NCBI GenBank assembly: GCA_000092065.1 | Contig: CP000582.1 | Length of the DNA stretch: 64,000 nt | Source: Ostreococcus lucimarinus | Lineage: Eukaryota | Strand: one strand, 5' to 3' | Part shown: piece after piece, positions 15,098-59,060 of the stretch | Layout of the letters: every line of letters starts with the position of its first letter | How positions within the stretch are numbered: position 1 is the first letter of the stretch | Notes under the pieces: generated by a model | Told to the model about the DNA's origin: nothing | Database searches by the model: none | What the model saw: the letters and a program-made list of their open reading frames with translations, nothing else | Position numbers and translations under genes: made by a program

Positions 15098-16648
15098 GAA
15101 TGCTGGGACTCTCGCCATAGCAAGGCCGCAAATTTGACAAAAAGGACATTGTTAAAATTATCAGGTTTCTACTTGAAGGTACTTTCACTTTGCAAGATGC
15201 ACTTGGTGGCTAAAAGTAGCCTAGGTAGCGCAAGTTTTTGCCACGAAAGCAGATCTACTACCAAAAGAATACGTTCACGCGCTCAGCTGCGTTCTTGATG
15301 ATTGCGCTCCGATGCCCGTCGGTGAGGTCAAGAGAGTGGTAGAGCGAGAATTAGGCGCTCCAATATCGAAGATTTTTCATCGATTTGACTTGCAACCGAT
15401 CGGCTCAGCCACTATTGCTCAAGTCCACCGCGCAGTCTTGCAAGACGGTCGACATGTCGCTGTAAAAGTACAAAATACTCGAAACAAAAAGCTGATGCGA
15501 TTTGATTTACGCAACATGCTTTTTGTTTCTCGGTTACTGGATCGACTTCGAGTATATCTTCCGTTCGATCATACAAGCATTTTAGTAGAATATTCCACAC
15601 AGGTACGCACAATACACCTGCAAGTATTAATGTTCAACTTAACGTCACCCAGGTACCTCTGGAATTTGATTTTAATAGGGAGAGACGCATGTTGAGCGTC
15701 CTAGGTCGTCGTATTAGCTCTAATCATAAAGTTCGTGTTCCAGCACCGATCGATGGACTCTGCACTGCTCAAGTGTTGACTATGACTTTGATTGAAGGCA
15801 AACCTTTAGCAACTTTTACGTCAGTCAGCTCAAAGAAAAATGTGGAGGGCAATCTTGATTATCTTAGAGACAATTTGAGGGAATTACTAGCAAGCTTTGG
15901 ATTTCAAATCTTGAACTTAGGTGTTTTTCACAGTGATCCCCATCCGGGCAATATTTTACTAAGAGATTTTCGAGACATTGCGCTGATAGATTTTGGTCAG
16001 GTGAAAATATTATCTGATGAAACACGAGTGCTGTTTGCGCATCTTGTCGTATCATTGTACGAAGAGTCGGATCAATTGTACGCAATATTAAAAACACTCA
16101 AAGTTGAGTTTACAATAAATGATCCAAAATTGATAAGGACCATAGCTTCAATTCTGTTTGATACACGCATGGATATACCCGAAGCACTCGTATCCCCACT
16201 AGATTCTGAATTTCCAGCGGAACTACGCAGTGTGAGAATAAATGTGATACCCACGGAGGTTTTCATGATTATTCGTATCATTGCTATATTTCGAGGCATC
16301 TTTTCAGCTTTGGATATCGATTTACATGCGAGGAAACTTTGGGTCAGCAGTGCACGACAAACAATTCTCGATTCCGAGCGTGTATATAACTTCAATATTC
16401 TAGCGACACCAAGAAATGAAGTGAACATCGTTGATCAGCTGAAGCATTTTAGTGCTTGGCTTGCCCTTCATGGCTTGCCTCACCAGAGGGAGTATATGAT
16501 GGCTTTTGCGAAGTTACATGTGTTTTGTATCAAAGATTTACGGAAACTTGCCGCAGAGAACGAGCGATCAGCACTTGATGCCGTATTCGCAAACTTCTCG
16601 GAACAGGATAGAAGCCGTTGTCTAAAACTTTGCTATGAGCATTCATGA
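15098..16648 (+). CDS. ABC1/ADCK (UbiB-family) atypical protein kinase; 5′ exons upstream of 15098 unresolved
   Basis: Exons read ..KAANLTKRTLLKLSGFYLK / VAQVFATKADLLPKEYVHALSCVLDDCAPMPVGEVKRVVERELGAPISKIFHRFDLQPIGSATIAQVHRAVLQDGRHVAVKVQ..YSTQ / VPLEFDFNRERRML.. The signature FHSDPHPGNILL is present. Introns at ~15179..15223 and 15603..15652 (GTACGC donor). Stop at 16646..16648. Confidence 0.8.
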
Positions 16649-17093
16649 AAGCGAATATCATAGTTCAACCTGTGTCTTCGTCGAGTACCAGGAGCACTTA
16701 TTCAACTTATTCAACCAAATTTTGGATTAACGTGAATCCCGACCGGGATACTTTAAAATAGTAATTACATTTTATTAGATCTTAAAAATCTCTCAATGCA
16801 GCAAATTTTCAGTTCAGGTGCCTGTGAATGTTTAATAAATAAAATAACACACGGGCGTGCCGTTCCTCAACACCCCCGCCAGTCGCCAGACACGCACATA
16901 TACCGAACTGATTCGAGCCGTCGAATGGTCACGTAAAGCACGCATATTGCAGAGTCCTACCGTTGTTCAACTTTTAACTAGAGTTCGCGATGGGTAAGTC
17001 CATCGCTCACGCCAGTCACTCCCACTTCAACTCATACATTTTTGTTACAATACAGGCATTAAGGAGGGTCTCTCCGAACTTTGGGATGACTTG

Positions 17094-18794
17094 ATGTCTT
17101 ATCGGACACTTAAGGTGGTCAAAATAAGCGATAGGCGCCTGGCCTATGTTCACAAGACGCTCATGGTGACGATTCTTGTGTACGCTCTCGTTTCAGTCAT
17201 CGGGGCCCACACGTACATGCTCAAGGAAAAGCCACGAGCATACATGTCTACCATATTCAATGATACAGTGAGAGATTTGAATCTCGCTGATAGTGCAATG
17301 CTCAATCAAATTTATTGCAACGCGTCATATTCGGACTTCGCTGGAGACTCACTTGTACCGGAAGGTTCATATTTAAATAACAGTTGCGTCACTCATATAC
17401 CGACAGCACAAATGGTTGAAACTGATGAGGTGGCTACGTTCATCGCGACGCATTTGAAGTCGAGAATGTTTACAAGATCGTGTGCAGATGCTTTGACCCA
17501 GGTCGGTTGCAGCATATCATATCAAACAGATGTTAATCAGTTCCCACTTGATCCAGACAACTTAATCCTGCAAATCCGGCCGCGTTTTGTTACGAGTTGG
17601 GGGTATAACGGCTATCCCGAATCGGTTGCTGTATTTGATCACACGTCGACAGCATTTCGAACATTTTACTCTAACGATGCGAATAACTCGGCGAAATTCC
17701 CGATTATGTACCTTCATGAGATCCTGCGATTAGCTGGTATCGAGCTGGACGAAAGAAACGAGATTGAAGTTTCGTCCGCTTTCGCCACGAATTTTCCCAT
17801 TTATCGGCTGACGGGCGTGCGATTGAGTGTTGACTTGACTTTTAGTAACTTTCGTCCGATGTCGCACTTCAAACCGTTCGATTTCAGTGCTGAAGCAGAT
17901 ATGAATATTCAACTGAGCAGTGAGGGAAGCTTTGTCACAAGCGTAGACATGGTGCATTTCTCCGGACCAGCATCAGATATCTCTGCAAGTGGAACTGTGA
18001 TGCAGTACAGAGGAGTGCAATTGGAGTATGGTGCAAAGGGTCTGATGGGCAAAGCTGACTTCTACACAGCAATGATGGCAATAATGAGCTGCTTCATTAT
18101 GGTCTCTGTCGCGACAACGGTTGTTGATATTATCGGTGCTTTTATCTACGATTCTTTCAAAGACGATAAAATAGAAGATGACGGTGAGCGACAGCATTTA
18201 GAGCACATGATTCTAAACTTGGAGACCGTTGGCGTGCCTTTCGGACACGACGACTTACAAATTCTACCAAATGTATCCATGAAGGAGTTCCTTCAGTTGC
18301 TTCAACGTGACATCGTCAAATTGAACGCTCTGGCGCACCACATGAGTCGTGATTTGGCAGCAGCAGGAGTAAATCAGCACACGGTATCAATCCAACAACC
18401 AACCAAGCATGCAAGTATGCCGAAGTATAAATGTAAACTTGTCGCACCCGATAGAACAGACGTTTACCTCACCGGTGGGCCTCAAACAATTGGACGTGGG
18501 CACGGTGGTTGTGAATCAAAGCGCATTTCACATAAGCAGCTAAGTATTATAGCGAATATTCAAACCGGCGTGGCTTTGGTGAAAGGTCTGCACACGAAGA
18601 ATGTGTCTGGTGTCGCTTTAGCCGGTGGTGCATGGCAGACGCTCGGCGCAAATGATGAAGTTGAGCTGGAGGCAGGTGATATGATAGCATTAATATTAGA
18701 CCAGAACGAAGAGGAGACAAGCGCAGAGGGTGTTTTCATTTACGCTGTCGAGAAATTCGAGGAAATAACGAGTAAGAGCTGGTTTAGTCTTTGA
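17094..18794 (+). CDS. P2X-like ATP-gated cation channel with a ~230-aa C-terminal cytoplasmic extension (FHA-like)
   Basis: N-terminus is YRTLKVVKI (the YxTxK motif) followed by TM1 (TLMVTILVYALVSVIGAHTY). The Cys-rich ectodomain reads FPIMYLHEILRLAGIELDE, matching the P2X motif CPIFRLGDIVE.AGENF. TM2 is AIMSCFIMVSVATTVVDIIGAFIY. The C-terminal tail carries TIGRGHGG..RISHKQLSI..NVSGVAL..VELEAGDMIAL, reminiscent of the FHA GR / SxxH / NG / GD.I.LG pattern. Single exon. Confidence 0.65.
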   Translation: MSYRTLKVVKISDRRLAYVHKTLMVTILVYALVSVIGAHTYMLKEKPRAYMSTIFNDTVRDLNLADSAMLNQIYCNASYSDFAGDSLVPEGSYLNNSCVTHIPTAQMVETDEVATFIATHLKSRMFTRSCADALTQVGCSISYQTDVNQFPLDPDNLILQIRPRFVTSWGYNGYPESVAVFDHTSTAFRTFYSNDANNSAKFPIMYLHEILRLAGIELDERNEIEVSSAFATNFPIYRLTGVRLSVDLTFSNFRPMSHFKPFDFSAEADMNIQLSSEGSFVTSVDMVHFSGPASDISASGTVMQYRGVQLEYGAKGLMGKADFYTAMMAIMSCFIMVSVATTVVDIIGAFIYDSFKDDKIEDDGERQHLEHMILNLETVGVPFGHDDLQILPNVSMKEFLQLLQRDIVKLNALAHHMSRDLAAAGVNQHTVSIQQPTKHASMPKYKCKLVAPDRTDVYLTGGPQTIGRGHGGCESKRISHKQLSIIANIQTGVALVKGLHTKNVSGVALAGGAWQTLGANDEVELEAGDMIALILDQNEEETSAEGVFIYAVEKFEEITSKSWFSL

Positions 18795-18861
18795 AAGACG
18801 AGACATTTTGCAAGAATGCAGGAGCGAAGCGTGAAAAAGATCCAGGCAACGACCACACCTA

Positions 18862-20606
18862 CTAACCGATGTCCTTGAGAAGTTTTCCATAGTAAACAAA
18901 TTTCCACTGTGTCTGCTTGTAATGTAACCACCTATCTTCAAATAGGGAAAGATTTCTTTGAGACGTCTCTCCATTCATGGGAACTAGTGTTGCGAAAAAT
19001 AAAGCTGCCTTCGGGAATACTTAATAGGCGATTGCGTCTTTAATAGTTCGAGTGCAAGCAGCTTACCTCGAGCCATGTGAGTGCCTCGCACATTTGAGCC
19101 TCATAAAATAGTCCTGCAGAGGTGTTAATCTAATCCTAACTACAAGCAGAAATAGAACACCTTCAACGTTCATTTCTGAATTCTTTTCCGCCTGGTACTC
19201 TTGCAAAAATGATAGCAAACTTTCATCGTAGAAGGAGTTCGTAGTTCGAAACAATTTCATTGTATCGAATCCACGATAATTTGGGCCGGCTAAATCAATG
19301 TCGATCAACTTTAGTGAAACGAAGGTATGAGGTGTAAGTAAGTGACTTCAACGTGAAGTTTATGGTGTACCTTGAAGTTTCGGTCCTGTTGGTAGATTAC
19401 GTTCGATGGCTTCAGGTCACCGTGACAGAAACAGATAGGTAAGTGAACGCTCTGGATATTTTGTGAGATACTATTGAATTTTGGACACTCATATACACGC
19501 CTTGAAGAAAGATTCCACTTTGAACACTTCATCCTCTAATTCCTAAAGCAATGTCAACTTGTCAACTTGAGCGACCACCAACTGGTACTTTGCGCTTTGC
19601 GCCGCACCTTGACCCCAACACCAGCGATCATGCCCCCCTTTGAAAATCTTAGTCTCATTAACATCCGGGGATTTCGACACTACCTCAAGTGGTCGCAACT
19701 GCATCAGCATTTGATGAAACCATTTCCATATGAGTGCCCGCTCACGTCCTTCACAAGTCAGGGGAAGTAAAGGTTTCAAGATCTCAAATGATTCACCCTC
19801 TACGTGCACTGAGTGCAGCCTACTTATTCTACGATATTGTGACAAAAGATTTAACATTCTTGTTCAAAGATTCGAGAGTGTGCTTACAATTTAGCAGTTG
19901 ACTTGCAGAACGAAAGTTCCTTCATATCTTCTTCTCGGAGAACTCGGCCATCCAAGTACTCAGTAACGATGATATCATCGGCGTGTGAAATATAATGCGG
20001 ACAAATGCCACGTTCTGCCAAAGTTTTATGCATCTCGATGCAACTGCGCGCTCTTGAGACAGTTGAAATGTACTGTGTACTTCACGCCTACCTCAGTAAG
20101 TCACAGCGCAGTTTTGACAACTTGCTGTACTTTTTTACTACAAAGGTTTCGCCTCCACATGAGACCTTGTGCAGATGTGAATTTTAGTTTTTAAATAATG
20201 TAGCGCCGTTTCGTATCGGATACCTTGAAAACTTGGTTGCAGAAGCCTTCTGTGAACTGTGCGCACTCGAGTCTAACAGAAAAAGTTTAGGTATTGAGAA
20301 TATCCAAGATCGGCGGCGGATATGAGTAACTTACTTCACCGAATGCTTGTAATTTAAAATACTTTTGATGGCGTCAACATCTTCCACACTTAGTGATGTT
20401 GCTACTTTTTTCGAGAAAGCAGTTGCGCTTGGACTCCGTCGAGTTTGTCGAACTTTGCAATAACTTGGTCGTTCCGGTCGGGAAAGGACGAAAGCATGCA
20501 TCACCCTCTCATGCAGGGGTATCAAGCATATCTTAACTTGCTCTAGTAGAGAGAAGCAAGTGCGAAACGCGTCGGCCTGTCCTGGGCATAGCCGGTCTCC
20601 CGGCAA
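18862..20606 (-). CDS. choline/ethanolamine kinase (about 6 exons)
   Basis: Exons read ..NYKHSVK / LECAQFTEGFCNQVFK / VSCGGETFVVKKYSKLSKLRCDLL / ..CIEMHKTLAERGICPHYISHADDIIVTEYLDGRVLREEDMKELSFC.. / ..ICFCHGDLKPSNVIY.. (Brenner motif) / IDIDLAGPNYRGFDTMKLF (ChoK motif IDxE..NYRGFDI.NHF) / ..LFEDRWLHYKQ*. Introns are ~46–63 nt. The stop at 18862..18864 lies 68 bp from the convergent P2X stop. Confidence 0.75.
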
Positions 20607-57056: not shown

Positions 57057-57455
57057 CGATGTATTCCAGAACGCGTAAGATGTAAAGATACTCGAAGTCA
57101 CTATTGCCAGAGTGTGGACGAGTCGTACAAATTGATGGCTCACGTGACGGGGTCTAGCGATCCCAGGTTTGTCCGTGAACGAACCATACGAAAAAAGGCA
57201 ACGAAATTGGACGTAGGATCTCACGCAGTCCGCATGAGCCAGATTGGTAGATTATGTGAAGATATAATAGGACGGATTGTACAAGTGCAGAAGTGATGTG
57301 GGGTATCCATTGAAATTAATGTTCACACGATGGCCTAAAGTCACATCATACCTACATCAACTATTTGGCTCTTTTCTTGTTTAAAAGGTCCAAGGGATTC
57401 ATCTACGAAATGCGATCTGGTGAATTTCTTGCCACCGTGGTCAGCGAACAAAGTA

Positions 57456-58730
57456 TTAGTCGTTTTCGTAGAACTCTTCCTTACTTATGACGACGCTGTC
57501 TTGACCCAAACTCCCGCCATATCTTTCGTCTGGGTTCAGATCACTCTCGTCCAACTCCGGTACGAGGACGGCGGGAGGTGCTTCGCTGAATTCAACACTC
57601 GGTGCGAACGTGAGGGATTTCAAGTTTTGCCGAACTTTTTCTTTCACCTGATTCAAGTATGAAGGTGTGTTCAAATTTTCTATCCACACCGGCGCGTGTG
57701 CCTTCAACTTGTATCCTGCATCGGCGTAATACTCGTAATAGTTCTCGTGCGGTGGAATATGTTCTACCAGTTGTTTACCTAGGAGAGTTGCTGTCTCATT
57801 CGCCCAGCATCTGGCTACATTGGATTTCGTATAGCCTCCGCCACCTGTAACAAGTATCGGCTTCGCAAAACTTTTCATGAAGGAAACACATTCTGCGTGA
57901 CCTTTCAGTGAAAGGTTAAAGCAACCGATTCGATCGCCAGCTAGTGAATCAGCGCCGCATTGGAGGACGATGGCGCCTGGTTGGAATGAATCCATCACGT
58001 CTTGCATGACAAATTTGAATAGATCCACAAAGCTTTTGTCATCTATGCCATCATTCAAGGGCACATTGACACTGTAGTATTTTCCCGAGTTTATGCCGAT
58101 GTCCCTCAAACCACCTGTGCCCGGGAAGAACATATCGCCATATTTATGAAAACTGACGGTCATCACTCGATCAGTCATGTAAAATGCTTCTTCCACTCCG
58201 TCACCGTGATGAATATCTATATCTATGTACACGACCCGTGCATGTTGCTTCAGGAGTTCTAGTATCGCTAACACGAGGTCGTTGATGTAGCAAAATCCCG
58301 AAGCTTCTGCCTTCTTTGCATGGTGTAAACCTCCAGACCAGTTTATGGCAATGTCTGATACCCCCTGATTCAATCGCCGGACTCCGTCAATGGACCCACC
58401 TGTGTACCGTCGACAAAAGTCAAGCATGTGATCGAAAATGGGGCAGTCTTCGCCAAGGTTGAATCTTTGCATTTCTAAAACGTATTGTTGCTGCTTGTCA
58501 GGAGTTATTTTTGACAAGAAATCGACGTAATCTTCGCTATGAAACTGAGTGAATTCTGTGTTCGTGCAGGCTCGTGGCCTGAAAACTTGCAGGTGTTTAT
58601 GCAAATCATAGGCCAAAATCAAATTGTGCGTCATGCACAAGCGATGAGGCTTCATGGGGTGGTTCGGCCCGTAGTAGTTTCTACCAACTTCTTCGTCATA
58701 GTAGTAGCACACCCTTTCCTTGGCGACCAT
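57456..58730 (-). CDS. class I histone deacetylase (RPD3/HDAC1-like)
   Basis: ATG at 58730 (MVAKERVCYYYDEEVGRNYYGPNHPMKPHRLCMTHNLILAYDLH..). The whole ORF aligns with HDAC1: ..HHAKKAEASGFCYINDLVLAILELL..YIDIDIHHGDGVEEAFY..VSFHKYGDMFFPGTG..GGGGYT.. 425 aa, no C-terminal tail. Confidence 0.9.
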   Translation of the reverse strand: MVAKERVCYYYDEEVGRNYYGPNHPMKPHRLCMTHNLILAYDLHKHLQVFRPRACTNTEFTQFHSEDYVDFLSKITPDKQQQYVLEMQRFNLGEDCPIFDHMLDFCRRYTGGSIDGVRRLNQGVSDIAINWSGGLHHAKKAEASGFCYINDLVLAILELLKQHARVVYIDIDIHHGDGVEEAFYMTDRVMTVSFHKYGDMFFPGTGGLRDIGINSGKYYSVNVPLNDGIDDKSFVDLFKFVMQDVMDSFQPGAIVLQCGADSLAGDRIGCFNLSLKGHAECVSFMKSFAKPILVTGGGGYTKSNVARCWANETATLLGKQLVEHIPPHENYYEYYADAGYKLKAHAPVWIENLNTPSYLNQVKEKVRQNLKSLTFAPSVEFSEAPPAVLVPELDESDLNPDERYGGSLGQDSVVISKEEFYEND

Positions 58731-59060
58731 CGGAACCGACGAAAGCCCGTGTGGAACGAGAACCAACCTTTTGTTAAAAAATTGGCGACGGCCGCAAACT
58801 GTCTTGAATTTCGTAGGAACTGAATACTATCTCGTTTGCTAGGCTTCGGCTTCCGTGTGTTGCGTGCGGTGCAAGGTGGCCGACGTGGTACTTGGAAGAA
58901 AATAAGAAAATTGAATCGAGTAAGCCGAACCCAACCCGTATTATAGCGGCGCTAAAGAGTATGTCTACACTACGAGACTCAAACATACATATAGACTAGA
59001 TATAGACTTGGCGCGTATTCATACGAATAACCATCAGACAAGCGACTTTAAACGCGCGAC

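Follow-up and report, generated by a model that had tools for sequence, protein, structure and literature searches.

We describe a gene on the plus strand at positions 16990-18794 of a 64,000-nucleotide stretch (the window) of Ostreococcus lucimarinus contig CP000582.1 (assembly GCA_000092065.1). It encodes a highly divergent member of the P2X receptor superfamily, with a long C-terminal tail predicted to contain a forkhead-associated (FHA) domain. A first-pass annotation had read positions 17094-18794 (+) as an ATP-gated P2X-type channel with an FHA-like extension. The open reading frame (ORF) exists: the ORF listing gives a single long frame at 17091..18794 (+), which from the ATG at 17094 codes for 566 aa. 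The start had to be corrected, as the coding sequence begins at an upstream ATG at 16990, with a first exon of 4 nt and an intron of 62 nt. The mechanical ORF starts at 17091 because an in-frame TAA at 16995 lies within this intron. In many orthologues, 14 additional N-terminal residues, MGIKEGLSELWDDL, directly precede MSYRTLK, and these are encoded in the window at 17056-17093.

The spliced product has 580 aa and is 100% identical to the O. lucimarinus CCE9901 protein XP_001416144.1 (ABO94437.1; UniRef A4RT33), which bears the database name 'conserved protein'; the window thus belongs to the nuclear genome. A transcriptome-derived sequence, also of 580 aa, shares a 90% cluster (P0316) with it. 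Metagenome records of the same cluster often carry a truncated protein of 566 or 525 aa, because ORF-based callers miss the tiny first exon and the 62-nt intron. The O. tauri orthologue (CEG00997.1, XP_022840732.1) has the automatic name 'Forkhead-associated (FHA) domain', and the O. mediterraneus orthologue is listed as 'FHA domain-containing protein'. Residue numbers below are those of the 580-aa spliced protein. Its features, including the two transmembrane (TM) segments, are as follows:

16990..16993 (+), exon 1 (ATG G, the start codon and the first base of codon 2), from sequence reading and the spliced translation
16994..17055 (+), spliceosomal intron of 62 nt, GTAAGT...ACAG, from sequence reading and the orthologue N-termini (MGIKEGLSELWDDL-)
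17056..18794 (+), exon 2 including the stop codon at 18792-18794, from the ORF, the spliced translation and identity to XP_001416144.1
17100..17114 (+), Y17-R-T19-L-K21, the P2X YxTxK/R motif in the N-terminal, predicted cytosolic segment, aligned by hhalign to Y15-D-T17-P-R19 of human P2X4 (hP2X4)
17157..17222 (+), TM1, about residues 36-57, from hydropathy and hhalign to hP2X4 TM1
17223..18062 (+), ectodomain, about residues 58-337, with four Cys and four N-x-S/T sequons, from hydropathy and alignments
18063..18146 (+), TM2, about residues 338-365, with conserved V-A-T-x-x-x-D359, from hydropathy, hhalign and the alignment
18147..18371 (+), post-TM2 module, predicted cytosolic, residues 366-440, from alignments, the AlphaFold2 (AF2) tail model and hhalign
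18372..18422 (+), variable spacer of low confidence, residues 441-457, from the alignment and the AF2 tail model
18423..18761 (+), predicted FHA domain of PNKP/APTX/APLF type, residues 458-570, from the tail profile against PDB, AF2 and Foldseek
18762..18794 (+), short variable C-terminus with a conserved aromatic ending, SWFS-L/W, and the stop codon, from the orthologue alignment

The N-terminal two-thirds of the protein is a genuine, though highly divergent, P2X-superfamily core. By profile comparison, homology to P2X receptors covers the whole core, residues 1-375. A profile built from the 19 Mamiellales orthologues only (A1) was aligned by hhalign with hP2X4 (reference sequence confirmed against PDB 9bqh_A) and 13 protist P2X receptors, at a probability of 99.8% and an E-value of 3.1e-28 over 340 aligned columns, far beyond chance. 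The alignment spans the N-terminal YxTxK motif, TM1, the ectodomain and TM2, and extends past TM2 as far as K-x-x-ED. In it, the ectodomain stretch FPIMYLHEILRLAGIELDE is matched with hP2X4 PIFRLGKIVENAGHSFQD, confirming a resemblance to P2X noticed in the first-pass annotation. Among 1.84 billion representative proteins, A1 matched 370 at E<1e-3, many of them proteins of 350-450 aa that span profile positions ~10-380. When four members of the FHA-bearing family and 64 A1 hits were aligned, 43 of these 68 sequences matched Pfam P2X_receptor at E<1e-3 (best 83 bits), and a profile of the extended family matched PDB entries of P2X1/2/3/4/7 with E-values down to 5e-27. Such wider profiles were required: phmmer and the orthologue profile yielded no match to PDB sequences. 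The Pfam P2X_receptor matches of individual orthologues were weak (17/19, best E 2.3e-4). Full-length AF2 modeling with the 19 orthologues gave a poor model (predicted local distance difference test, pLDDT, of 52); its top 50 Foldseek matches in PDB were all P2X chains, at a TM-score of ~0.3.

Several hallmarks of the superfamily are present. Only two strongly hydrophobic segments were found, about 36-57 and 338-365, and they flank a large ectodomain, in agreement with P2X topology and with the two TM segments claimed at first pass. The YxTxK motif, likewise claimed, is invariant in 19/19 orthologues. D359 in TM2 aligns as the equivalent of hP2X4 D354, and Y366-D-S-F-K370 provides the C-terminal YxxxK motif. 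In open P2X channels, as known from P2X3 structures, the N-terminal YxTxK and post-TM2 segments build the cytoplasmic cap. Since the cap motif at the N-terminus, TM2 and the post-TM2 segment are all very strongly conserved here, the protein probably has a working gate and pore. Note that the motif definitions (YxTxK/R and YxxxK) are those of PMC2397467.

We then mapped the residues that contact ATP in hP2X4, using both hhalign and an independent MAFFT L-INS-i alignment, with the following result:

hP2X4 K67, here I68 (hhalign and MAFFT)
hP2X4 K69, here N70 (hhalign and MAFFT)
hP2X4 T186, here I172 (hhalign and MAFFT)
hP2X4 N293, here S293 (hhalign and MAFFT)
hP2X4 R295, here V295 (hhalign and MAFFT)
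hP2X4 K313, here Q318 (hhalign and MAFFT)

By sequence alignment, 0/6 canonical contact residues are kept; hP2X4 K190 aligns with R176. Across the orthologues the six positions are non-basic or variable, and mostly non-basic. In the same alignment, canonical protist P2X receptors retain the E-N-F-T motif; at the NFR site they have F-K/R, and they carry basic residues close to where K67 and K313 lie. Misalignment is therefore probably small. An invariant S-N-F-R-P was considered as the P2X N-F-R ATP motif and rejected, as hhalign and MAFFT both place it on the preceding strand, at hP2X4 'NWDCN'. The ectodomain is not Cys-rich, as had been proposed: it has four Cys (C89, C112, C144 and C153), compared to ten, forming five disulfides, in canonical P2X, and the 10-Cys pattern is absent. 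Some of the ten are missing from other protist P2X receptors too (PMC3853471). Because all six contact residues are replaced, ATP binding or activation in the canonical P2X pocket is unlikely, and the label 'ATP-gated' is not supported.

Could ATP act elsewhere in the protein? A truly ATP-gated receptor, with ATP in a remodelled inter-subunit pocket and the FHA tail joining purinergic to phospho-signalling, would be in line with P2X homology across the entire core and with the ATP gating recorded in HEK293 cells for OtP2X, a related Ostreococcus protein (PMC2397467). The invariant R320 near the K313-equivalent position and several other invariant ectodomain Arg also speak for it, and such residues, judged from the alignment, could leave room for a remodelled site. 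Nevertheless, we consider this explanation unlikely. The six canonical contacts are all replaced at positions that vary among orthologues, whereas canonical protist P2X retain their counterparts of the NFT, F-K/R and K67/K313 sites and OtP2X reportedly retains the Lys69 and Lys308 equivalents (PMC2397467). Moreover, no other region of the protein is as poorly conserved as the ectodomain.

The C-terminal tail comprises a linker and a compact domain. The post-TM2 module contains Y366xxxK370, a near-invariant acidic stretch DDKIEDDGER, which hhalign aligns to hP2X4 KKYKYVEDY, a GVPF motif, and predicted helices at 379-393 and 410-437. Its pattern across the family is F..DDK[FY]EDDGER..LE.ML...GVPF...L+L, followed by a heptad-like helix. 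It is the best-conserved cytosolic stretch after the N-terminus. Searches of this module against PDB and Pfam returned only insignificant, coiled-coil-like matches.

Regarding the domain that follows, the first-pass annotation had pointed to FHA-like motifs (TIGRG, RISHKQ and GDMIAL), all of which are present. A direct Pfam scan of the protein did not detect FHA. With a profile of 14 diverse tails, the best matches in PDB were all FHA domains, namely APLF (E 3.1e-4) and PNKP (0.015-0.04), followed by weaker FHA matches to Rv0020c, Vps64 and FOXK2. AF2 modeling of residues 362-580 from a 25-sequence alignment resulted in a pLDDT of ~90 across 458-570. In a Foldseek search of PDB with this tail model, APLF (5e50) ranked first, with an E-value of 2.8e-7 and a TM-score (TMt) of 0.80, far beyond chance. 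Matches to APLF, PNKP and aprataxin (APTX) had E-values of 1e-5 to 3e-7, TMt ~0.8 and root-mean-square deviations (rmsd) of 2-3 Å; for the PNKP structures 1yjm and 2w3o the rmsd was ~2 Å (1.8-1.9 Å for 2w3o), and the aprataxin match was 3kt9. The best 44 PDB matches were all FHA domains, those after aprataxin including CEP170, SLMAP, RNF8 and MDC1. From the predicted structure we are confident that the tail holds a genuine FHA fold.

The domain carries G-R482-G, K490-R491, S493-H494, Q496 and G542-D543. The segment G-R482-G...K490-R491-I-S493-H494-K-Q496 aligns with G-R27-G...K36-R37-V-S39-R40-R-H42 of APLF and with S-R-T-Q of PNKP; in the profile alignment R482, K490, R491 and S493 pair with APLF R27, K36, R37 and S39. 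In 14/14 tails neither the G-R-G motif nor the Ser or Gln varies. A phosphate-binding role of these Arg and Ser residues is established for PNKP and APLF. Judged by its aligned residues, the domain is of the PNKP/APTX/APLF subtype (Pfam PF17913, FHA_2), not of the classical SxxH/NG type, and the predicted phosphate-binding residues are retained.

An artefactual origin of the tail, as a separate gene, a 3' untranslated region (UTR) read through, or an assembly or annotation fusion, is refuted. We found no support for it; the sole error in the gene model is the overlooked intron behind the 5'-terminal ATG G. The first-pass annotation had itself raised a 3'UTR or intron artefact and had asked whether orthologues keep the extension. 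They do: the frame is unbroken to 18794, the RefSeq model XP_001416144.1 is an identical 580 aa, and the tail is retained by all Mamiellales orthologues, including transcriptome-derived ones of the same length and architecture. Colinear orthologues occur in three genera, distant paralogues exist as well, the tail is better conserved than the ectodomain, and nucleotide similarity to a related contig covers exactly the gene (16899-18784).

Two genera, Ostreococcus and Micromonas, have full-length orthologues with 54-99% identity, as does another Mamiellales group that is probably Bathycoccus. Compared with the Micromonas and Bathycoccus-like orthologues, identity is 93% in the N-terminus, 84% in the post-TM2 linker, 79% in TM2, 67% in the FHA domain and 40% in the ectodomain. 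The whole architecture is conserved across Mamiellophyceae, with the cytosolic parts most constrained. More distant proteins with 19-31% tail identity, in paralogue clusters that include Mantoniella beaufortii and Crustomastix stigmatica, likewise join a P2X-like core to the linker and an FHA domain. So does a metagenome-only clade (P0149, P0140, P0152, P0155 and P0382-P0390) with 19-29% tail identity, found on contigs of up to about 169 kb. In sister branches the divergent P2X-like core is joined to tails with IG_AIR9, EF-hands or zinc ribbons. One such branch (P0138, P0141, P0146 and P0153) has proteins of 699-878 aa with long C-terminal tails, and Pfam IG_AIR9 matched in P0138 and P0141. 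These proteins share with the O. lucimarinus protein the divergent core, an F-K-E/D-x-K-F/Y-E-D-D motif after TM2 and the absence of the canonical ATP residues, but have another cytosolic output or regulatory module instead of linker and FHA. This distribution suggests that protist P2X-like channels have modular cytosolic tails. A P2X receptor is reportedly encoded by 5/5 sequenced Bathycoccus prasinoviruses (PMC8528832); a pattern scan of IMG/VR revealed no viral relatives of the FHA-bearing type.

The same conservation profile bears on a further explanation, in which the protein conducts no ions and serves as a membrane-anchored FHA adaptor, the P2X-like core being a trimeric anchor or luminal domain and the role phospho-dependent scaffolding at the membrane. 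It would account for the much better conservation of the cytosolic parts than of the ectodomain, for the loss of the ATP site, and for the other cytosolic interaction modules (IG_AIR9, EF-hands, zinc ribbons) of the sister branches. However, the cap-forming N-terminal YxTxK and the post-TM2 segments are nearly invariant, as expected of a working gate and pore, and we regard a pure adaptor as improbable.

Among characterized proteins, a close comparison is OtP2X, cloned by Fountain et al. in 2008 and ATP-gated in HEK293 cells (PMC2397467). It belongs to the same genus and superfamily, has the YxTxK/R N-terminal motif, and its ectodomain is poorly conserved. In contrast to the 580-aa O. lucimarinus protein with its linker and FHA domain, OtP2X has 387 aa and no C-terminal domain. 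It reportedly keeps equivalents of rat P2X2 Lys69 and Lys308 (PMC2397467), whereas the ATP-site residues are missing here; conversely, Asn replaces the TM2 Asp in OtP2X and the Asp is retained here. The same study noted that O. tauri has four ORFs with a remote relationship to P2X and that O. lucimarinus contains similar ones (PMC2397467); the O. tauri orthologue is plausibly one of the four. A candidate for OtP2X in our sequence set, P0242, was rejected as an amoebozoan sequence from Paradermamoeba. The Dictyostelium receptors P2XA-E are likewise protist P2X that resemble the animal receptors very little in sequence, and a role at intracellular membranes (the contractile vacuole) has been proposed for them (PMC3853471). 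These receptors are ATP-gated, measure about 378 aa and lack an FHA domain.

To vertebrate P2X receptors (hP2X4, PDB 9bqh; P2X3; P2X7) homology extends from YxTxK to the post-TM2 K-Y-x-x-ED, but identity is about 15%, and neither the 10 Cys nor the K67/K69/T186/N293/R295/K313 equivalents are kept. P2X7 offers a precedent for a big cytosolic C-terminal domain on a P2X core, although its 'ballast' is unrelated to FHA. The FHA domains of PNKP, aprataxin and APLF share 20-23% identity and a TM-score of ~0.8 with the tail model, together with G-R-G, the basic pair, S-[RH]-x-Q and G-D, and like it lack the classical SxxH/NG. They differ in context, being N-terminal in soluble DNA-repair factors of the nucleus that recognize XRCC1 or XRCC4 phosphorylated by CK2, while here the domain is C-terminal on a predicted membrane channel. 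They also differ in the residue after the phosphate-binding Ser, which is Arg in PNKP and APLF and His494 here. Literature searches on P2X with FHA, and on the accessions of the O. lucimarinus protein and its O. tauri orthologue, did not turn up the fusion, and reviews later than Fountain et al. 2008 added nothing on long-tailed P2X forms. The gene is thus annotated but uncharacterized. The FHA part is already known to automatic annotation; the combination of P2X and FHA and the loss of the ATP site appear to be undescribed.

The gene lies in a window with a GC content of only 0.43-0.52 throughout. Upstream, at 15312-16648 (+), is an ABC1 atypical-kinase-like gene in two frames, 15312-15695 and 15689-16648, matching positions 10-92 and 123-235 of the Pfam ABC1 profile; the split over two frames implies a short unannotated intron near 15690. 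At the 3' end, a 92-aa antisense ORF at 18696-18974 (-) overlaps the P2X-FHA gene and was treated as a chance ORF. A metagenomic contig is 95% identical over the gene (window 16899-18784) but has different neighbours: the histone-deacetylase gene that adjoins the P2X-FHA gene there matches window positions 57133-58732, about 40 kb away. These features fit the 'outlier' part of Ostreococcus chromosome 2, which is low in GC, prone to rearrangement and also rich in small introns.

Taken together, the gene product is probably a membrane channel subunit, divergent within the P2X superfamily, that has a cytosolic acidic and helical linker and an FHA domain of PNKP/APLF type and whose activation through the ATP pocket is unlikely. 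Both termini would be cytosolic and the two TM helices would flank a large domain, either extracellular or luminal; the subunits would assemble into a trimeric cation channel, as in other P2X. The FHA domain may dock on a phosphorylated Ser/Thr motif of a partner or within the cytosolic part of the channel itself. Judging from PNKP and APLF, its ligand is probably an acidic CK2-type motif; candidates within the channel are T19 of YxTxK and the CK2-like S368-F-K-D-D beside TM2. Kinase signalling could then control gating, assembly or localization. Gating might respond to another ligand, use a different pocket or be controlled from the cytosol. The earlier interpretation is thereby supported in part: it was right about the P2X fold and the FHA domain, and ATP gating is unsupported. 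The first-pass annotation had named two findings that together would speak against it, a tail without FHA fold and an ectodomain without ATP-site residues; the ATP-site residues are indeed absent, whereas the FHA fold was found.

Several observations weigh against our interpretation. Pfam matches with single sequences are below the gathering thresholds, both for P2X_receptor (14.8 bits against 27, covering residues 2-42 only) and for FHA_2 (E ~0.1, 12.9 bits against 23.1). As the full-length model is poor, the assessment of the ATP pocket is one of sequence alignment across a divergent ectodomain. The invariant ectodomain residues R74, R142, R252, R257, R268 and R320, the last of which shares a strand with the K313-equivalent position and lies two residues away from it, could make an alternative anion or nucleotide site. 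Finally, H494 stands in place of the PNKP/APLF Arg after the phosphate-binding Ser; it is His in the Mamiellales orthologues and Arg in the paralogues.

A bolder form of the proposal, which we offer tentatively and with some doubt, is a P2X-fold channel that abandoned ATP sensing: an FHA domain held under the pore on the conserved, possibly trimeric helical linker would bind the channel's own phosphorylated cap or a partner, resulting in a kinase-gated trimeric channel. If this is true, then, together with the sister proteins that carry AIR9-type Ig, EF-hand or zinc-ribbon tails, the P2X fold would be a general channel chassis of protists with interchangeable cytosolic sensors.

P2X receptors are the textbook ATP-gated channels and have been studied nearly exclusively in animals. 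A conserved algal branch that has the pore and cap hallmarks, has apparently lost the ATP pocket and has gained a predicted phospho-peptide reader raises the question of what else the P2X fold senses, and whether phosphorylation can govern P2X-fold channels directly. Because O. tauri can be manipulated genetically and recordings of OtP2X in HEK293 cells exist, the predictions are directly testable. For abundant marine picoalgae (Ostreococcus, Micromonas and Bathycoccus), the analysis provides a functional annotation for genes so far named 'conserved protein' or 'FHA domain', and suggests that ion fluxes may be linked to kinase signalling, with CK2 as one possible kinase.

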